Below are positions 3,253-35,222 of a stretch of 64,000 nucleotides of DNA, one piece after another. This stretch comes from a virus (lineage: Duplodnaviria > Heunggongvirae > Uroviricota > Caudoviricetes). The DNA lies in IMG/VR virus record IMGVR_UViG_3300035188_001315. One strand, given 5' to 3'. Position numbers and translations under genes: made by a program. Within the stretch, counting starts at the first letter, position 1. The number at the start of each line of letters is the position of its first letter. The notes under the pieces are model-generated. The model was given only the letters and a program-made list of their open reading frames with translations. It had not been told where the DNA came from and searched no databases.

Positions 3253-3602
3253 CAATTCTAAGCTAAATCATTTTTCAACAAATTAGATATTGCTTGTACT
3301 TCAATATTTACTACACCCAATACACCTAGTGCAGCCCACCCAAAAAATACAACATTATGTTCATATAAGGTCGTTACTCTTATACCGCTTGTTAAGCTGC
3401 TTATAGTTTCCTATAAGATCGGACTATATCTTTATCCATTTCTGGATACTACCCATTTCCACTTACTTAAGTGTACTCCCTTTCGGGATAGTCTCTGAAC
3501 CTTAAACTTATTACTAAGTTTCTTGGCTGCTGATTGTCCTTTCGGATGTCCCAGCAATTAAAGTAGTTTTCATTATATTATTACTAATATAAGGAGCCTG
3601 TA

Positions 3603-4268
3603 TTATTTTGACCCATAATGTAAAGGGGCTACAAATAACTCCTCCATAAACCAGAATGTGTGTCCCCATTCATTTAATCCAACGTTTGGAAGAATCATAA
3701 ATGGACCAATTACAGATACCATGTATTGTAATGGTAAACCTTGTTGATAGGTTGGCAATCTTGTTTTAGCATATAAAAATGCAGCAACACCTGTAATAAT
3801 GTAAATTGGATAACTTAAATAAAACTCAATAACATGACTTGGTGTAAAGTCAGTATCACGGACAATCGTTTGATGCCATGTACCATCTTGTTCTGTAAAG
3901 TATGATGCACCATAATAAATCGCAATACCATACATTACCAACCAAATCCAATGTGTGAAGTGTCGTCTCAATTCCTCACGAGGAGTAATTGACATTACTT
4001 TTCGATCACGTGTCTTCCAAATATAACCCCATAATACTGAAGCAGTAATTACTTCAAGTACCATTTCAATGTAAAGGAAATTCATCCAATACGTTTCAAA
4101 CTCCGGTGCAAATGAATCTAAGCCGGCTGACCAACCATAGACTCCTTCATACCAACGAACCCAACCATAAAATACAACGTATAACGCTGCACCTGCTAAC
4201 ATAGCTTTTTTGTTTAAAAGAGAAGATTCTTTTACTTCTGCTTTTACCATTTCTACTGTTGCTGACAT
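3603..4268 (-). CDS. pmoC: ammonia/particulate methane monooxygenase subunit C family protein (PmoC/AmoC-like), C-terminally short
   Basis: Translation carries the conserved blocks WVRWYEGVYGWSAGLDSFAPEFETYWMNF, WGYIWKTRDRK, SYFTEQDGTWHQTIVRDTDFTPSHV, MILPNVGLNEWGHTFWFMEELFVAPLHYG, diagnostic of PmoC/AmoC. AGGAGA RBS 7 nt before the MSATVEMV start. Ends right after PLHYG, so the last TM helix of bacterial homologues is missing. Confidence 0.85.
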   Translation of the reverse strand: MSATVEMVKAEVKESSLLNKKAMLAGAALYVVFYGWVRWYEGVYGWSAGLDSFAPEFETYWMNFLYIEMVLEVITASVLWGYIWKTRDRKVMSITPREELRRHFTHWIWLVMYGIAIYYGASYFTEQDGTWHQTIVRDTDFTPSHVIEFYLSYPIYIITGVAAFLYAKTRLPTYQQGLPLQYMVSVIGPFMILPNVGLNEWGHTFWFMEELFVAPLHYGSK

Positions 4269-4537
4269 GTTGTTTCTCCTAATCAAGGGAAAAAATATAA
4301 ACGTAGTGTACCAACACGGCACACTTCAACTTGAGTTAAAACAGTTTATAACAAACCTTAAAACTTAGTGTTTTACTCTGTTATTATAAACTGGGAGATA
4401 TTATACAAAAAAGTTTCAAAAACAAAATATTTTTAAAAAAAAAATTTAAAAAATGTTTCTGTCTATATTTTAAAGCAAAAAAAAATGTGTTCGTTAAACG
4501 CATTTTTTTCATAAGTATATGTTATTTAAATATTATA

Positions 4538-6088: not shown

Positions 6089-6484
6089 TTATTTACCTTC
6101 AACAACCGGTTCTTTACTATCAAAAAACTGTTGTACAACGGTAATCAAATCTCTGGGACTAAATGGTTTAGTTTTAAAAAGATTTGCACCTGCTGCAAGT
6201 CCTTTTTGAATATCATATGTGTTACCAGATATTAATATTAAAGGACAAGCTGGATTAATTTCTTTAATCATACGACATAGTTCGACACCATCATATTCTC
6301 CTGACATCATAATATCAGTAAAAACTATATCTGGATCAATCTCTTGATATTTTGAAAATCCTTCTTCAGCATTTACTGCTTCAAATAGTTGTATGTTTGG
6401 TTGACGTTTGAATGTTAAGTACATTAAATCACGAATGTTTTCACAATCGTCAACTACTAACAATTTAATGGGTTTATGTTTCAT
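6089..6484 (-). CDS. single-domain response regulator (CheY-like receiver)
   Basis: LLVVDD acidic pocket, phospho-acceptor D in FTDIMM, conserved T and K (KTKPF). Start codon 2 nt after the kinase stop, i.e. translationally coupled. Confidence 0.8.
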   Translation of the reverse strand: MKHKPIKLLVVDDCENIRDLMYLTFKRQPNIQLFEAVNAEEGFSKYQEIDPDIVFTDIMMSGEYDGVELCRMIKEINPACPLILISGNTYDIQKGLAAGANLFKTKPFSPRDLITVVQQFFDSKEPVVEGK

Positions 6485-6486
6485 AA

Positions 6487-7653
6487 CTATTTCACCGGAA
6501 ATAATAACCTAAATGTCGTTCCACAATTTTCAGGGTTTGTGTTAGTATCAACTAATAGATGACCACCGGCATCGTGTACCATACCACATACCGTAGATAA
6601 ACCTAAACCTGTACCTTCACCAATAGGTTTAGTAGTATAAAATGGATCAAATATATGTTCCAGTATATCTACAGGTATACCTGTACCATTATCTTTTACT
6701 GACAACTCAATAAACTTACTAGGAACTATATGTGTTACACATGATGTACACAAAGTTGGTTCTAATAATACTATAGATTTCAATGAAAGAGTAATGGTAC
6801 CACCTGATTTCATAGAATCTCTAGCATTCACTACTAAATTAGTAATAATTTGATGTAAATCAGTTGAATCAATACGAATATCTAATCTCAAATCAGTATC
6901 AACTTCCAAATTAAATTTACTTGTTAATGCAGGTCCAATCATAGATACAACCTCACCGATAACATCGTGAGTTGCACGTATTTCAGATGGTGCATCTGGT
7001 GGACTATGTCTAGAATAAGCCAACATTTTTTTGATGAGATTTGATGCTCGTTTTGCGGCTTTTTGAATTTCTTCCGCATTATGTAATATCTCATCTTTAA
7101 TATCGCCACATTCACAATCCTCAACAACCATAGCAGTTATATCATTATAACCTACTACACAATTCAAAATATTGTTAAAATCGTGTGCAATACCTGCAGT
7201 TAATCGACTGAGACTTTCGATTTTTTGCATTTGATTTATTTGCTTATTAAGAGTTACTAATTTAACTTTGTTTTCTTCACGTTCAGAAATATCCTCAAAC
7301 TCAGCCATATAACCAAGACAATGATTATCATTATCTCTAATAGTGGTACATCGGATAAATACAATCATATCTGCAAATTTTAAAACTGAACTTAGACATT
7401 TACTCGATGATTCGAGTAAATGTCTAAGTTTTGAAGGATCTGGATAAATATCATCAACATTCTTCCCAATAAGGTTATGTATATCAAACCAGGGAAGTCT
7501 AGCTTTGATTATTGGTTCTGCACTTTTAAATATATTAATTGCACTTTTATTAACATAGACAATATTGCGATCAACATCAGTTATTATCACACCAGTAAAT
7601 AATTTGTCTAATCCTAACTTCAATTTTATCCCAGTTGATTTGGACTGTGGCAT
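6487..7653 (-). CDS. cytoplasmic PAS-domain sensor histidine kinase
   Basis: N-terminal PAS-like region. H-box AGIAHDFNNIL, N-box NLVVNARDS, G1 DNGTGIP, G2 GTGLGLS. No TM segments. Confidence 0.8.
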   Translation of the reverse strand: MPQSKSTGIKLKLGLDKLFTGVIITDVDRNIVYVNKSAINIFKSAEPIIKARLPWFDIHNLIGKNVDDIYPDPSKLRHLLESSSKCLSSVLKFADMIVFIRCTTIRDNDNHCLGYMAEFEDISEREENKVKLVTLNKQINQMQKIESLSRLTAGIAHDFNNILNCVVGYNDITAMVVEDCECGDIKDEILHNAEEIQKAAKRASNLIKKMLAYSRHSPPDAPSEIRATHDVIGEVVSMIGPALTSKFNLEVDTDLRLDIRIDSTDLHQIITNLVVNARDSMKSGGTITLSLKSIVLLEPTLCTSCVTHIVPSKFIELSVKDNGTGIPVDILEHIFDPFYTTKPIGEGTGLGLSTVCGMVHDAGGHLLVDTNTNPENCGTTFRLLFPVK

Positions 7654-7905: not shown

Positions 7906-8634
7906 TTACAATTTTTTAGATGTGTCGTTAAATTCATGAAACTCACAAAGTTTAATCAACTCGGTAGCGGTTTCATTATTAAACCCTAAGAATCTAACAA
8001 GAGTATCCATGTTTTGTCTTTCTAACCTACCCAATGATTCTCGCAATTCTAGTTGCTCTTTAGCTTTTAAAAAACGCCATTTGATATGGTTGTCTGATTC
8101 TGAAATACCAACTAAATATTTTTTAGCAATATTTTCATTTTTAGTCCAGTATTCATTCTCTTTGGAATCATTAAATTCTTCAATCTGCTTAGTTTCAAGA
8201 TTGTAAACTTTCTTCTTGAACTTTTGTAACTGTTTTTTCCAGGATTTAATTGCTCTCGGACTTTGCATTTCACCACCAAAAATATATTTAAAATGAGTTT
8301 TTGCCAAAATTATTTTAAATATAAATTCATACAAACCTATTTTTATTGATTCGGTTTTTTTAATTTCTTCAATTCTCTCTTTATTGACAAACGAAGTTGT
8401 GATGAACATTTTATCATTATCCAGTCTTTTGTATTCCACATGACCTAGATATTCATTTTCCTTATCAGTTAGATAAAAAACATCATGTCCTGAATAAATT
8501 TTACAACCCAGTAACTCAATATCAGTTGAGCACAGTTCTAGTTTTTTAAATTCCGCATTAAAATCCATCTGCATAGAATTACCACCATAGTTATCAGTAA
8601 TCAACGCCATTTCTTGTAGTTGTTTTAGATTCAT
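7906..8634 (-). CDS. hypothetical protein
   Basis: ORF; second ATG chosen because of AAGGA RBS. Confidence 0.45.
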   Translation of the reverse strand: MNLKQLQEMALITDNYGGNSMQMDFNAEFKKLELCSTDIELLGCKIYSGHDVFYLTDKENEYLGHVEYKRLDNDKMFITTSFVNKERIEEIKKTESIKIGLYEFIFKIILAKTHFKYIFGGEMQSPRAIKSWKKQLQKFKKKVYNLETKQIEEFNDSKENEYWTKNENIAKKYLVGISESDNHIKWRFLKAKEQLELRESLGRLERQNMDTLVRFLGFNNETATELIKLCEFHEFNDTSKKL

Positions 8635-8671
8635 ATTTTTTCCTTTCAATTGCATTTTACATTTCTTTAGG

Positions 8672-8706
8672 AAAAAAAAATACCCACTTTTGGTGGGTAT
8701 TTTTAT
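8672..8706. terminator. bidirectional rho-independent terminator
   Basis: acccacttttggtgggt hairpin flanked by A9 and T5 runs. Confidence 0.6.
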
Positions 8707-8713
8707 GTTTTTT

Positions 8714-8784
8714 AACGGGATAGGGTATTCGAAACCCTGATAATTGAATGGAAATCAACGGTGTTACCACTACACTAATCCCAC
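8714..8784 (-). tRNA. tRNA-Gly (UCC)
   Basis: Manual cloverleaf: acceptor GTGGGAT/ATCCCGT, D stem GTGT/ACAC, anticodon loop TTTCCAT, T arm AGGGT-TTCGAAT-ACCCT. CCA not encoded. Confidence 0.65.
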
Positions 8785-8895: not shown

Positions 8896-9174
8896 TTATT
8901 TAGTCATTCTACTTTTAAATACCACATCCAATTTTGAATTTGTTTCTTCCGCAAATTTAGCTGCACGGTTTGCAGCTTCTTCAGCAGCTGTTGCCCGTGT
9001 TGTTGCTTCATTAGCCAATGCTTGAGCACTTTGTGCATCATGTGATGCATGTTCAACAGAAACTTTCAAATTGTCAATTTGTGATTGCAATTTCGTTACG
9101 TCACTTGTACTTGCACAACCAACAATAACTGAGGTAAATAAAAAAACTACTGCAACTTTACTTAACATTTTCAT
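8896..9174 (-). CDS. lpp-like: Braun lipoprotein (Lpp)-like small lipoprotein
   Basis: Signal peptide with lipobox IVGC. Ala-rich heptad coiled coil resembling Lpp. C-terminal Lys (the peptidoglycan-attachment position in Lpp). AGGAG RBS. Embedded in tRNA cluster. Confidence 0.6.
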   Translation of the reverse strand: MKMLSKVAVVFLFTSVIVGCASTSDVTKLQSQIDNLKVSVEHASHDAQSAQALANEATTRATAAEEAANRAAKFAEETNSKLDVVFKSRMTK

Positions 9175-9200
9175 AATAAACTCCTATATTTCAACTACGT

Positions 9201-9279
9201 ATTTGGAGCAGGACTTGGATAGATTTGAACTATCACTTTTGGAGTGGAACTCCAATGTTCTACCATTAAACTACACCTG
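9201..9279 (-). tRNA. tRNA-like element with Gly (UCC) anticodon arm, copy A, non-canonical
   Basis: D arm, anticodon arm TTGGA-GTTCCAC-TCCAA and T arm GATAG-TTCAAAT-CTATC are fine. Three extra nt lie between T stem and acceptor, with 2 acceptor mismatches. Identical copy at 10336-10414. Confidence 0.35.
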
Positions 9280-9361
9280 CATATTATACTATTTTATGAC
9301 ATCGGTGAATCAATCACTAAACGGTGATGCCATATATTAAAAACCTTACAGGTTTGTTATT

Positions 9362-9437
9362 TGGCTGGCTAGGTAGGGCTCGAACCTACGACAGAGTGAT
9401 TAACAGTCACTTGATCTACCAACTGATCTACTAGCCA
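9362..9437 (-). tRNA. tRNA-Asn (GUU), copy A
   Basis: Clean cloverleaf: acceptor TGGCTAG/CTAGCCA, anticodon arm AGTGA-CTGTTAA-TCACT, T arm GTAGG-TTCGAGC-CCTAC, encoded CCA. Identical copy at 11039-11114. Confidence 0.75.
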
Positions 9438-9627
9438 ATATTTTTAAAGGAGATACTTAACGATCCCACTTTTATTTATAATAATTATACAACATTTTTT
9501 TGTCAATTTAAAAACAAATTCAAAAATCTAAAAAGAGAGATTTAACCACTGTTCCTTTCACAATCCAATTATACAAGAAAAATTTGTGAAAGGAATATTA
9601 TAAAAAAGAAATCAAAATCATTAGAAA

Positions 9628-9975: not shown

Positions 9976-10006
9976 TGATCTGGAAACCCTGATCAGTAAT
10001 AATATT

Positions 10007-10291
10007 TGGCATCCTCTAGTGGATTCGAACCACTGACCTACGGCTTAGCTTACCACTATAGTTTTCACTACCACATAAGTGTTTGTGGTCTGGACTTTCT
10101 CTTTACCATATCCTCTGAATTGGACTTAGGTAGTTGCCATTAAGTCTCTACACGTTCCCATTACTGGGCTTCGCTCGGGATTGACATTTTACAGTTTTCC
10201 CCGAATTTGACAACTTACATTCATAATGTTTCCACTATGACGCTCCAATGTATTCAAAGGCCGTTGCTCTATCCAGCTGAGCTAAGAGGAC
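10007..10291 (-). tRNA. tRNA-Arg (UCU) interrupted by a group I intron in the anticodon loop
   Basis: 5 prime half GTCCTCTTAGCTCAGCTGGATAGAGCAACGGCCTT and 3 prime half CTAAGCCGTAGGTCAGTGGTTCGAATCCACTAGAGGATGCCA assemble into a canonical cloverleaf with loop CUUCUAA. The two halves are separated by 208 nt. Confidence 0.7.
10049..10256 (-). ncRNA. ORF-less group I intron (Azoarcus/cyanobacterial tRNA-intron type) between anticodon positions 34 and 35
   Basis: Intron RNA contains GUUGUCAAAUUCGGGGAAAAC (P3-P4 core) and GUGUAGAGACUUAAUGGCAACUACCUAAGUC (P7 region), closely resembling the Azoarcus pre-tRNA-Ile intron. 5 prime exon ends in U; intron ends in G. Confidence 0.65.
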
Positions 10292-10335: not shown

Positions 10336-10414
10336 GAGCAGGACTTGGATAGATTTGAACTATCACTTTTGGAGTGGAACTCCAACGTTCTACCATTAAA
10401 CTACACCTGCATTA
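10336..10414 (-). tRNA. tRNA-like element with Gly (UCC) anticodon arm, copy B
   Basis: Near-identical to 9201-9279 (one substitution). Confidence 0.35.
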
Positions 10415-10560: not shown

Positions 10561-10953
10561 ATTGTTTGGTGGACCTGGCGAGTTCTGCCCCTCGCGTCCA
10601 TAAATAACCACACTTAAAGTACTACACGTTTATTTCAATTTTATTTTTCATTTCTTAACAAAAATGAACAAAATGTTAAAAAATATATTCCGTAACTTTA
10701 GTTTGAATTCTATTTCCAGAATGTATAGAATTCTATCTTGTGTCCATGACACCCAAACGATAATCAGATTATCTCTATTCGCACAAGCACAAATAGTTGA
10801 GTGGGTAGATAGGGTGTTTAAGCCGCTACTGCTACCTGGTAGTAAGAGTCATTTGCAATTACTTTAAATTTGGATCGTTTAAAGAGAACTCCACCTCTAC
10901 GTGCACTTCAAAGCTTCATCATCTATGTCGATTCTGATTCAAGCCCTAAATTT

Positions 10954-11030
10954 TGGTAGCGGATGCAGGATTCGAACCTACGATTCTTGGCTTATGAGAC
11001 CAAGCGGATGACCACTTCCATAACCCACAT
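10954..11030 (-). pseudogene. tRNA-Met (CAU)-like element with non-pairing acceptor ends
   Basis: Good T arm GTAGG-TTCGAAT-CCTGC and anticodon arm TTGGT-CTCATAA-GCCAA. The 5 prime segment repeats ATCCGCT instead of complementing it. Confidence 0.3.
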
Positions 11031-11038
11031 TTTTTATT

Positions 11039-11114
11039 TGGCTGGCTAGGTAGGGCTCGAACCTACGACAGAGTGATTAACAGTCACTTGATCTACCAAC
11101 TGATCTACTAGCCA
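11039..11114 (-). tRNA. tRNA-Asn (GUU), copy B
   Basis: Identical to 9362-9437 including about 12 bp of each flank. Confidence 0.75.
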
Positions 11115-11164
11115 ATATTTTTAAAGTTTAAATTAAAAATTTTCATTAGTTAAAAACATTTAAT

Positions 11165-11450
11165 TTAAACACCTAAAAATAACATTATACAATAAAAAAT
11201 TTCATTTATCAAGATTTTTTAAAAAATATTTTTTTCATCACTTCTTAAAAATAACATTATACAATAAAAAATTTCATTTATCAAGATTTTTTAAAAAATA
11301 TTTTTTTCATCACTTCTTAAAAATAACATTATACAATAAAAAATTTCATTTATCAAGATTTTTTAAAAAAATATTTTTTTCATCAATTCTTAAAAATAAC
11401 ATTATACAATAAAAAATTGCATTTATCAAGATTTTTTAAAAAAAAGGGGA
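11165..11450 (-). repeat. four tandem ~72-bp repeats, each carrying a consensus sigma70 promoter directed leftward into the tRNA cluster
   Basis: Each unit on the minus strand reads cTTGATAaatgaaattttttattgTATAATg (TTGATA-17-TATAAT) with an A/T-rich UP-like tract. Copies start at about 11181, 11253, 11325, 11398. Confidence 0.6.
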
Positions 11451-11650: not shown

Positions 11651-11887
11651 TTAAAATGAATTTGGTTTAGCAACTGATCTCGTGATTGCCATTAATCCTT
11701 TTTGTAAATCAGTTTTTCCTACAGTTAACCACCAAGTATCAGTAGTTTCAATGGATTCCAATTTTTCAATCAGATTACCCAATTTTTCGCCAATATCCTT
11801 AATTTCATTTATTGCAGAAACTTCTTCTTCAGTTAAGTTTCTGTATCCTTTGATTTTTTGTTTTTCTTCTGTCATCATAATCTCCAA
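11651..11887 (-). CDS. hypothetical protein (78 aa)
   Basis: ORF, acidic, upstream of 295-aa gene on same strand. Confidence 0.4.
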   Translation of the reverse strand: MEIMMTEEKQKIKGYRNLTEEEVSAINEIKDIGEKLGNLIEKLESIETTDTWWLTVGKTDLQKGLMAITRSVAKPNSF

Positions 11888-23275: not shown

Positions 23276-24079
23276 ATGTTGGAAAAAGCAAAACAGATTA
23301 TTAAAGATGCTGATGTAGTCATTTTGATGACCGGTGCTGGAATGTCAGCTGAAAGTGGGTTAGATACTTTTCAGAATACAACCAACAGTAGAAAAAAAGT
23401 TAAAAACCAAAAAATCACCTATGCAAACTTAACTACTCAGGAAGCATTCAAAGAGAACAATGAGTTAGCATGGACTTTCCATGGTCAAAGATTTAACTCC
23501 TATAAAACTACTAAACCCCATAAGGGTTATAAAATGTTACTCGATCTTGTAAAAGAAAAAGAGGATCATTTTGTGGTAACATCAAATATTGATGGTGCTC
23601 ATCATAAAGTGGGTTTTGATAATGTGTATGAAATTCATGGTCGATTACATAAATTTCAATGTATTGAGTGTGATGATGTTTGGTCTGCACCAGAAGATAC
23701 TTTTTTTGATGTTGATGTAAAATCTTACACTTTAAAGAATGAAGTTCCAAAATGTGTTTGTGGTGGAATTACTCGCCCCAATGTAATGATGTTTGGTTAT
23801 GATACAGGTTTTAACAAAACTGAAACGAATCAGCAATCTAAGGCGTTTAATGAATTTATGGTTAAATATGATAAAGGTGACCATAAAATCGCAATCATTG
23901 AAATTGGTGCAGGTGAATCAGTTCCTACTATTAGAACAATGAGTGAATTTATACATGAAAGAGTTCCAGGGGCAACATTAATCAGAATCAATCCAACAGA
24001 TACATTTGTTCCTGATGTGGACGCTATTTCGATAAAAATGACCGCCTTGGAAGCAATTGAAAGTTTAATTAATTTTTGA
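23276..24079 (+). CDS. SIR2-family NAD-dependent deacylase/ADP-ribosyltransferase (sirtuin)
   Basis: GAGMSAESGL nucleotide-binding motif, TSNIDGAHH, HG, four-Cys zinc ribbon (CIEC ... CVCG), GAGES motif. Confidence 0.7.
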   Translation: MLEKAKQIIKDADVVILMTGAGMSAESGLDTFQNTTNSRKKVKNQKITYANLTTQEAFKENNELAWTFHGQRFNSYKTTKPHKGYKMLLDLVKEKEDHFVVTSNIDGAHHKVGFDNVYEIHGRLHKFQCIECDDVWSAPEDTFFDVDVKSYTLKNEVPKCVCGGITRPNVMMFGYDTGFNKTETNQQSKAFNEFMVKYDKGDHKIAIIEIGAGESVPTIRTMSEFIHERVPGATLIRINPTDTFVPDVDAISIKMTALEAIESLINF

Positions 24080-31585: not shown

Positions 31586-32443
31586 ATGAAAAAATTATTA
31601 CTGACTCTTATGTTATTATCTCCGTTAACTTTAGTAAGTTGTAGTAAAGTTCCTGCAGGTACAGTAGGGATTAAAGTGCATTTACTAGGTGGTGATAAAG
31701 GTGTAGATACACAAGAACTATCACCTGGGTTGTATTGGATTGGTATGAATGAAGATTTATATACATTTCCAACATTTACACAAAATTATACCTGGACTAA
31801 AGATGATAAAGAAGGTAGCCCAAACGATGAATCCATTACTTTCCAAACGAAAGAAGGTTTAAGTGCTAACGCAGATATTGGTATTTCGTACCACATTCAA
31901 CCTGAAAAAACCTCTGTACTATTTCAAAAATATAGAAAAGGTGTTCGAGAAATTACGGATGTATATATTCGCAACATGGTTCGAGATTCAATCAATATTG
32001 AAGCAAGTACCCAATTAATTGAATCTGTGTATGGTTCTGGAAAAGCTGATCTAATTACTAATACTGAAAAACGTATTCAACATGAATTATTAGATACTGG
32101 CATTGTATTAGAACATCTATATTGGATTGGTGAAATTAGATTACCTCCATCCGTGGTTGCCTCTTTAACCAATAAGGTAAATGCATCCCAAATTTCACAA
32201 CAAAAACAACAGGAAATTGAACAGGCCAAAGCAGATGCATTAAAAGCTCAGGCGGTTGCAGAAGGGGAAGCGAATGCTAAGTTAACACTAGCTCGTGCTG
32301 ATGCTGAAGCAATTAGATTGCGTGGTGAAGCAATCAAAAATAACCCAAGTGTAGTTCAGTTAAACGCAATTGAACGATGGGATGGACACTTACCACAAAT
32401 CACTTCTGGTGCAACCCCTTTTGTGGATTTAACCAAAAAATAA
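31586..32443 (+). CDS. SPFH/band-7 (stomatin/HflKC-like) domain lipoprotein
   Basis: Lipobox LTLVSC; C-terminal Ala/Glu/Gln-rich coiled coil typical of SPFH proteins. Confidence 0.6.
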   Translation: MKKLLLTLMLLSPLTLVSCSKVPAGTVGIKVHLLGGDKGVDTQELSPGLYWIGMNEDLYTFPTFTQNYTWTKDDKEGSPNDESITFQTKEGLSANADIGISYHIQPEKTSVLFQKYRKGVREITDVYIRNMVRDSINIEASTQLIESVYGSGKADLITNTEKRIQHELLDTGIVLEHLYWIGEIRLPPSVVASLTNKVNASQISQQKQQEIEQAKADALKAQAVAEGEANAKLTLARADAEAIRLRGEAIKNNPSVVQLNAIERWDGHLPQITSGATPFVDLTKK

Positions 32444-34391: not shown

Positions 34392-35222
34392 ATGATCCCA
34401 CATATCTATAATGGCAATGGTACAATTTCTTTAATGATTGACGGTGTTATGAAACCTGTTGATACAGCTCACAAATTTTATGAACAAATCAAAGAGGCAT
34501 TAAAAGCTAAAAATTGGGATGTAATTCCAAATTTGGTAAACATCACACAACAAGTTGAAAATGCTATTAATGCTAGTACAATCAATGGTAATTCGGTTGA
34601 AATTAAATATGGTGAGGTGTTTTATAAAGGAACACTAATTCATAATGCGTTAACAACTCGCATCGTTAGTATGGCGAAAGATGGATTTGACATTGGTCAC
34701 ATGGTAAAATTTTTAGAAAATTTAATGTTAAATCCATCAAATCGAGCAGTTAAAGAATTGTATTCTTTCTTAGAAGTGGGTAATATCCCTATTACTGAAA
34801 ATGGTACATTTTTAACTTATAAAAAAATCAGAAATGATTGGACTGACATTCATTCTGGTAAATTTAACAATTCTGTTGGTGCAGTTGTAAAAATGGAACG
34901 TAACTTTGTTGATGAAGATTCATCCGTTACGTGCTCGACTGGATTGCATGTATGCTCTTATAGTTATTTGCCACATTTTGGCAACACGCATGATAGTCGA
35001 GTTGTTATTTGTGAGGTAAATCCAAAAGATGTAGTGTCAATTCCTCAAGATTACAATAACTCAAAAATGCGTGTTTGTGAATACACCGTTATCGGGGAAG
35101 TGAAAAATTATACCGAGGATGATGTTTTGGCTAAAAATGCAGTTATGTTTACCACTGACATTAAACCTCATTTCACAGTTACCGAAACTGAAACTGATTT
35201 GAATATTACTGTTACTATTTAA
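34392..35222 (+). CDS. hypothetical protein (276 aa)
   Basis: ORF after promoter at about 34306. Confidence 0.5.
   Translation: MIPHIYNGNGTISLMIDGVMKPVDTAHKFYEQIKEALKAKNWDVIPNLVNITQQVENAINASTINGNSVEIKYGEVFYKGTLIHNALTTRIVSMAKDGFDIGHMVKFLENLMLNPSNRAVKELYSFLEVGNIPITENGTFLTYKKIRNDWTDIHSGKFNNSVGAVVKMERNFVDEDSSVTCSTGLHVCSYSYLPHFGNTHDSRVVICEVNPKDVVSIPQDYNNSKMRVCEYTVIGEVKNYTEDDVLAKNAVMFTTDIKPHFTVTETETDLNITVTI

Follow-up and report, generated by a model that had tools for sequence, protein, structure and literature searches.

Why would a lytic phage supply its host with that host's most abundant envelope protein? The question is raised by a 64,000-nucleotide stretch of viral DNA (IMG/VR record IMGVR_UViG_3300035188_001315, Caudoviricetes; hereafter the window), in which a 92-amino-acid open reading frame (ORF) lies at positions 8896-9174. 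The first-pass annotation of this locus described the product as resembling the Braun lipoprotein (Lpp) and proposed a phage-made Lpp mimic that could remodel the tether between outer membrane and peptidoglycan, for example for superinfection exclusion or lysis timing. The answer we favour, with moderate confidence, is that the gene encodes a diverged Lpp/OprI tether of the type found in Methylococcales, and that it serves a pmoC-bearing freshwater phage as an accessory gene by upholding or supplementing the envelope tether of the infected cell.

Family membership was assessed with profile (hidden Markov model) searches. Against the NCBIfam model NF040598 ('Lpp/OprI family alanine-zipper lipoprotein') the product (MKMLSKVAVVFLFTSVIVGCASTSDVTKLQSQIDNLKVSVEHASHDAQSAQALANEATTRATAAEEAANRAAKFAEETNSKLDVVFKSRMTK) scored 81.5 bits (cutoff 43, E = 4.7e-23), residues 5-92 aligning to positions 3-90 of the 90 in the profile. 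It also matched the Pfam model PF11839 (Alanine_zipper) with 63 bits (cutoff 23.1, E = 3.2e-17), covering profile positions 1-69 of 69. The worry that any similarity to Lpp might go no further than coiled-coil composition is thus not borne out, these scores being obtained over the full length, and the homology to the Lpp/OprI family is, by the profile evidence, real. It is at this family level that the proposed likeness to Lpp stands; in the strict sense it does not. Scores against PF04728 (enterobacterial Lpp; 17.6 bits, cutoff 29.1) and PRK15396 (NF011925; 19.4 bits, cutoff 108) fell under their cutoffs, and strict Lpp membership is therefore rejected. By the same scores, the phage protein is of the OprI or alanine-zipper branch (PF11839). 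The solved Lpp-56 variants in the PDB match it only marginally (E = 0.4-0.5). A HMMER search of 1.84 billion representative proteins returned 169 relatives at E <= 1e-3 (best E = 2e-21), the best of which were proteins of 92 amino acids with 54-58% identity over their full length. The JGI annotation of the protein already reads 'murein lipoprotein'.

The structural features claimed for the product, namely a lipobox, an alanine-zipper coiled coil and a terminal Lys, were all recovered. The lipoprotein signal was judged by rules, using a regular expression for the lipobox and a hydrophobicity script. The N-terminal part (MKMLSKVAVVFLFTSVIVG, followed by the lipobox C) carries Lys2 and Lys6 in its n-region, a hydrophobic stretch of 13 residues (7-19, mean Kyte-Doolittle value 2.7) and the lipobox IVGC, with the Cys at position 20 and Ala, not Asp, at +2. 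Across the 154 family sequences examined, a lipobox was present in 129, with Ala at +2 in 118 of these as in the phage protein, and a C-terminal Lys was present in 117; the last residues of the phage protein are R-M-T-K, ending at Lys92. Only three columns, Cys20, Ala64 and the C-terminal Lys, are invariant in an alignment of 24 members that includes Escherichia coli Lpp and Pseudomonas aeruginosa OprI (the sequence used for each of these two was verified by a Pfam match). A single heptad register runs without a break through the whole mature protein (a positions: V I V A A A A A L R; d positions: S L L A A A A A T V K), with a hydrophobic residue (A, I, L, V, M or F) at 17 of the 21 a/d positions and Ala at all of the central ten. 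An AlphaFold2 monomer model, built from a shallow alignment, predicts the signal helix and then a helix spanning residues 23-91, with a block-mean predicted local distance difference test (pLDDT) score of 90-96 over residues 31-90. Foldseek found no match to this predicted single helix in the PDB.

The closest relatives of the gene are bacterial. When 185,579 species, each represented by one genome, were scanned with a profile of 8 close sequences, 28 loci were confirmed, 24 in named Methylococcales (Methylobacter, Methylovulum, Crenothrix, Methylomarinum, Methylicorpusculum, Methyloglobulus, Methylomicrobium, Methylomonas, Methylococcus and Methylocaldum) and 4 in unnamed proteobacterial or gammaproteobacterial metagenome-assembled genomes (MAGs). 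The scan patterns were drawn from close relatives, so that the result shows the nearest relatives and not the full range of the family, and the all-Methylococcales outcome is partly shaped by the query. Identity of the phage protein to the 28 relatives is 43-61%, and most of these orthologues are also exactly 92 amino acids long. In a neighbour-joining tree, which is that of a short protein and carries no support values, a long branch within the Methylobacter/Methylovulum/Crenothrix group leads to the phage protein. The phage protein shares with orthologues from these bacteria (e.g. that of locus L012, Methylococcales MAG STB_1) its length, the position of the lipobox, the terminal Lys, the mature start ASTSD..LQSQID, the tail AANRAA..TNSKLD..F.....K and the Pfam family (PF11839, 66.9 bits for the orthologue). 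The term mimic is therefore misplaced: judged by its relatives, the gene is a diverged host homologue.

What the bacterial orthologue does is suggested by its neighbourhood. In 23 of the 28 loci the gene is immediately preceded, on its own strand, by one for a YkuD L,D-transpeptidase; of the other five loci, two have almost no upstream DNA on the contig. Two of the upstream genes were scored against Pfam YkuD and gave 64 bits (cutoff 23.4); NCBIfam offered no named subfamily for the Methylococcales YkuD proteins. This pairing, though indirect as evidence, points specifically to a bacterial orthologue that would act as a tether linked to peptidoglycan, as Lpp does. The phage window codes for no YkuD, and the phage protein would therefore rely on the host enzyme. 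As defined by PF04728, Lpp is reported only from Enterobacterales, Vibrionales, Aeromonadales and Alteromonadales (Witwinowski et al., 10.1101/2021.05.31.446380). That definition does not take in the phage protein or its Methylococcales relatives, which belong to the sister OprI family, and the pairing of an OprI-type lipoprotein with an L,D-transpeptidase outside these four orders suggests that covalent tethering may reach further than PF04728-based surveys indicate. The Methylococcales gene pair (loci L012-L039) consists of a short, single-domain YkuD gene with the lipoprotein gene about 100 bp on. Three loci (L031, L032 and L035) gave no YkuD match though about 3 kb of upstream DNA is present; the lipoproteins of L031 and L032 have a variant A-C lipobox, stand apart in the tree and may represent a second paralogue.

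The divergence of the phage protein is unevenly distributed. Compared with seven host orthologues, 17-18 of the 21 a/d core positions of the coiled coil are identical (81-86%), as against 26-30 of the 52 surface positions (50-58%) and 5-10 of the 19 residues of the signal peptide. GC content at third codon positions (GC3) is 0.16 for the phage gene, 0.18-0.27 for other genes of the window and 0.18-0.41 for the host genes. Moreover, whilst the Methylococcales gene usually follows a YkuD gene, the phage gene stands between tRNA genes. Because the core has been spared, the Cys and Lys have been kept and GC3 is phage-like, the gene is, by these measures, an old acquisition held under constraint and not a recent capture or an assembly chimera.

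The carrier has the character of a large phage. The window has a GC content of 31%, many small ORFs, at least 10 tRNA genes, one transfer-messenger RNA (tmRNA) gene and two group I introns, and its ORFs include matches to the phage families 'RIIB lysis inhibitor' (261 bits), SPFH lipoprotein (phrog_200, 262 bits) and RNA ligase (137 bits), together with a polynucleotide-kinase-like protein, a Sir2 protein and a metallophosphoesterase. The exact lipoprotein was found on ten metagenome contigs (JGI, ENA), the longest of 227,833 bp; the eight contigs with readable DNA agree in every base of the gene, and nearly all aligned flanks are at least 99.96% identical to the window. A stand-alone pmoC (PF04896, 374 bits) is present, without adjoining pmoA or pmoB. 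Its product scored best against PmoC of Methylomicrobium alcaliphilum (455 bits), followed by that of Methylococcus capsulatus (388 bits), alphaproteobacterial PmoC (about 300 bits) and AmoC (about 220 bits). The pmoC-phages of Chen et al. 2020 (PMC7674155) have genomes of 159-527 kb, 32-44% GC and up to 29 tRNAs, some being predicted to infect Methylobacter, and the profile of the window phage fits theirs. Kinship with amoC-phages, which have 36-39% GC and 1-6 tRNAs (preprint 10.64898/2026.06.18.733297), was rejected, as the GC and tRNA counts differ and the PmoC scores lie far above those for AmoC. The carrier is thus probably a large freshwater phage of methane-oxidising bacteria. The predicted Methylococcales host holds on the evidence of both the lipoprotein relatives and the type of PmoC, a tighter constraint than the largely gammaproteobacterial one that the first-pass annotation expected, and the lipoprotein gene would provide a second, independent marker besides pmoC linking an uncultured freshwater phage to Methylococcales methanotrophs.

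As the first-pass annotation stated, the gene is embedded in a tRNA cluster, with tRNA genes on both sides and on the same strand (Table 1); the protein gene closest to it (7906..8655) matched neither Pfam nor PHROG families. The arrangement suggests a single unit running from a putative promoter through tRNA-Asn, a further tRNA, the lipoprotein, tRNA-Tyr and tRNA-Gly to a putative terminator. Host RNA polymerase would transcribe this unit at tRNA-operon rates and, given the near-consensus sigma-70-type promoters and strong Shine-Dalgarno sequence, probably at a high level. Processing of the flanking tRNAs would release a short lipoprotein mRNA, which would be a fitting way to make a protein required in great abundance. 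The precursor would be exported through Sec, lipidated on Cys20 by the host Lgt, LspA and Lnt enzymes with cleavage by signal peptidase II, and carried by the Lol pathway to the inner leaflet of the outer membrane, as expected from Ala and no Asp at +2. There it may assemble into an alanine-zipper trimer, a coiled coil with about 66-70 helical residues, and a host YkuD L,D-transpeptidase would link Lys92 to the peptidoglycan. The precursor is as long as the host orthologues (92 amino acids), and a change in the width of the periplasm is therefore not expected; supplementation or replacement would be. The most likely benefit would be that the tether is kept supplied, or increased, whilst host expression is taken over, leaving the envelope intact through a long infection.

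Several points weigh against this reading. Trimerisation, lipidation, sorting and attachment to peptidoglycan are argued from knowledge of the family and from synteny, and the calls of promoter and terminator are consensus matches only. The tail R-M-T-K is unlike both the host consensus S-M-M-K and the E. coli Y-R-K, so that recognition by the host transpeptidase is not assured. The protein is about 40% diverged from all host orthologues, enough to allow for an altered function. Lastly, in two related phage fragments tRNAs lie beside a homologue of the conserved neighbouring gene (71-74% identical) and the available DNA holds no lpp-like ORF. More broadly, none of the related fragments read, identified through homologues of that neighbouring gene (42-74% identity), contained such an ORF. 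The gene is therefore dispensable in this phage group and an accessory gene of this population. Scans of IMG/VR with the lipoprotein and with the neighbouring genes turned up no relatives.

How does the protein compare with the known members of its family? P. aeruginosa OprI, the founding member of PF11839, likewise scores above the cutoff of that family, and has a lipobox, an Ala-rich heptad core and a basic tail ending in Lys, but shows only about 29% identity to the phage protein (with an OprI sequence checked only by its Pfam match) and differs in the N-terminal part of the mature protein. E. coli Lpp (PF04728; 1JCC and 1KFN are Lpp-56 variants) falls into the same NCBIfam group, 'Lpp/OprI family', as the OprI type, and shares the architecture and presumed mechanism, i.e. 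a lipidated Cys, a coiled coil and a Lys linked by L,D-transpeptidases. Its mature form, however, has 58 residues, a Leu/Val core and a Y-R-K tail, compared with 73 residues, an Ala core and R-M-T-K in the phage protein.

Tether genes are also found in cultured phages. A tblastn search of 50,697 cultured phage records with the phage lipoprotein, and likewise with OprI, gave no match even at E <= 10, where a query of 92 amino acids would be expected to give chance hits; the low-complexity filter probably masks such Ala-rich queries, and the negative carries no information. With E. coli Lpp as the query, 15 records matched at E <= 3e-17, the other eight matches (E 0.3-0.8) being chance coiled coils. 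These 15 comprise PVP-SE1 and related Salmonella and Cronobacter phages (Seunavirus), in which the gene (gp088 of PVP-SE1) is annotated 'putative major outer membrane lipoprotein', as well as the T4-like Erwinia phage FBB1 (Straboviridae); all are large myoviruses with an intact homologue of a host-type tether. The products of PVP-SE1 gp088 and the FBB1 gene have a lipobox and a C-terminal Y-R-K or Y-Q-K, are about 53-55% identical to E. coli Lpp (taken as a proxy) and 53% identical to each other. They score 75.5 and 61.3 bits against PF04728, within the 61-90 bits, all above the cutoff, of E. coli Lpp and the cultured-phage Lpps together, whereas the window gene belongs to PF11839. Their location is comparable: the FBB1 gene is flanked by two tRNA-Met genes midway through a tRNA cluster, and gp088 lies 100 bp before a tRNA-Met gene in a tRNA region, both on the strand of those tRNAs. 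The lineages and hosts are unrelated to those of the window phage, and the kinship between the proteins is at the level of the superfamily only (E = 1.5e-8 and 1.9e-6 with a profile of the 24-member alignment).

By family score, then, the tether of the enterobacterial phages (PVP-SE1-like phages and FBB1) is of the PF04728 Lpp type and that of the methanotroph phage of the PF11839 OprI type, which brings phage tether genes to three phage lineages, always with tRNA genes. The idea of a phage-borne Lpp is not new, since such genes have already been annotated in the genomes of cultured phages; our literature search found no functional study of any phage-encoded Lpp. It is conceivable, and we put it forward tentatively, that unrelated large phages have each taken up the covalent tether of their own host, always in or beside a tRNA operon, as a general means of envelope control. 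If so, a phage-made tether produced at tRNA-operon levels and freed by tRNA processing would be a general and so far unstudied strategy.

Amongst the other explanations, superinfection exclusion or protection of progeny is unlikely. Here, an altered outer membrane would block phage adsorption or injection, through receptor masking or stiffness, or would shed fewer decoy vesicles. Outer-membrane lipoproteins such as T5 Llp and Cor are phage exclusion factors, and the product would be a lipoprotein of that location whose coiled-coil surface has strongly diverged from that of the host. Its place behind sigma-70-like promoters suggests early expression. Moreover, loss of OprI or Lpp leads to hypervesiculation (PMC7969528), and an extra tether could conversely cut the number of vesicles. 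However, the protein would face the periplasm and not the cell surface, and it retains all of the features of a housekeeping tether, including the terminal Lys. It also lacks any sequence relation to phage exclusion families, no PHROG family, of exclusion or otherwise, being matched at E <= 1e-3.

That the gene is a neutral passenger, captured from a host into a plastic tRNA region and of no benefit to the phage, we consider unlikely too. In large phages the tRNA regions have a mosaic make-up of small accessory ORFs, and the related phage fragments without the gene would fit such a history. The state of the gene does not: it is intact and preceded by a strong Shine-Dalgarno sequence, its composition is fully phage-adapted, its divergence has spared the coiled-coil core, Cys and Lys, and its DNA is identical across the eight contigs. 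The recurrence of like genes in two cultured phage lineages also speaks against a passenger.

A part in lysis, either as the outer-membrane subunit of a spanin or in lysis timing through hold and release of the outer membrane, is very improbable. Small outer-membrane lipoproteins include the o-spanins, which are proline-rich and largely unstructured, and the window does code for an rIIB-like protein of the PHROGs 'RIIB lysis inhibitor' families. The lipoprotein signal is indeed what an o-spanin would have. However, the mature part is without any proline and is predicted to form one long helix, and there is no adjoining or overlapping i-spanin partner, tRNA genes occupying both flanks. In PVP-SE1, the Lpp homologue exists alongside a separate Rz/Rz1 pair beside the terminase gene (PMC7344957). 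A spanin role is thus unlikely.

Finally, it is barely credible that the window is an AT-rich bacterial genome or a chimeric assembly with a plain chromosomal lpp/oprI gene, for although it holds bacterial-looking genes (a histidine kinase, a response regulator and PmoC) and the scanned ORFs yielded no capsid or terminase gene, its strong phage-family matches, the solitary pmoC, a GC content well below that of the Methylococcales loci (40-53%), the absence of the YkuD neighbour typical of bacterial loci and the independent assembly of the same arrangement in nine contigs all speak against this.

Table 1. Features of the lipoprotein gene, the putative transcription unit around it and a second predicted lipoprotein of the window.
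Feature	Coordinates	Strand	Basis or remark
Lpp/OprI-family alanine-zipper lipoprotein precursor, coding sequence, 92 amino acids	8896..9174	minus	ATG start, stop codon 8896..8898; ORF list and NF040598/PF11839 matches
Predicted signal peptide, residues 1-19, ending in lipobox residues I-V-G	9118..9174	minus	Regular expression and hydrophobicity script
Cys20 codon, would-be lipidated first mature residue	9115..9117	minus	Invariant in 24-sequence alignment
Mature protein, 73 residues, predicted single long helix	8899..9117	minus	Heptad script and AlphaFold2 monomer
C-terminal Lys92 codon	8899..8901	minus	Invariant in 24-sequence alignment
Shine-Dalgarno sequence AGGAG, 6 nt 5' of the ATG	9181..9185	minus	Sequence reading
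Putative sigma-70-like promoter TTGACA-17-TATTAT (11/12 matches), 5' of tRNA-Asn	9478..9506	minus	Consensus scan, consensus match only
tRNA-Asn(GTT), first gene of the putative unit	9362..9437	minus	ARAGORN and Rfam
tRNA gene directly 5' of the lipoprotein gene	9210..9280	minus	Rfam RF00005, 50.8 bits; missed by ARAGORN
tRNA-Tyr(GTA), beginning 21 nt after the lipoprotein stop codon	8791..8874	minus	ARAGORN and Rfam
tRNA-Gly(TCC)	8714..8784	minus	ARAGORN and Rfam
Terminator-like hairpin and T run, end of the putative unit	8676..8704	minus	Consensus scan, consensus match only
Second predicted lipoprotein, SPFH/Band 7 domain, lipobox LVSC, phrog_200	31586..32443	plus	

The wider tRNA cluster shows several further features. 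A 72-bp unit is repeated 3.7 times at 11174..11443, and three copies carry TTGATA-17-TATAAT (11/12) directed towards the tRNA cluster, forming a putative tandem promoter array. The tRNA gene directly 5' of the lipoprotein gene has a near-identical partner at 10340..10410 (minus strand), both being tRNA-like genes of about 50 bits in Rfam that ARAGORN missed. The tRNA-Asn is duplicated together with its flanks at 99% identity (9353..9449 and 11030..11126). One contig (L008) fuses the two Asn copies and does not have the intervening stretch, which holds the tmRNA, tRNA-His, the intron-bearing tRNA and others; the stretch was either deleted in a natural variant or lost as the assembly collapsed. 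The tmRNA gene is full-length (10567..10946, minus strand; RF00023, 124 bits, model positions 1-374), and ARAGORN gave none. One of the two group I introns lies in the region 10003..10290 on the minus strand (RF00028, 75.6 bits at 10072..10266), in the anticodon loop of a tRNA. The joined loop, assembled by eye from putative splice sites, reads CU-UCU-AA and would make this a tRNA-Arg(UCU).

The other group I intron splits pmoC (3258..4322, minus strand; RF00028, 86 bits at 3400..3620). Exon 1 (ORF 3603..4322) ends '...FVAPLHYG' at about position 219 of the 250 of PmoC, and an in-frame exon 2 codes for 'VVFFGWAALGVLGVVNIEVQAISNLLKNDLA' and ends near 3258. Near pmoC and the tRNA cluster, a two-component pair is encoded at 6089..7653 on the minus strand, consisting of a HisKA/HATPase_c histidine kinase of 388 amino acids (phrog_5982, 180 bits) and a stand-alone receiver-domain protein of 131 amino acids. 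Elsewhere in the window, the rIIB-like gene lies at 34392..35222 and the Sir2-family gene at 23276..24079, both on the plus strand. The minus strand at about 11651..11875 codes for a small protein whose Acb2/Tad1 hairpin domain is that of a family of anti-defence sponges.

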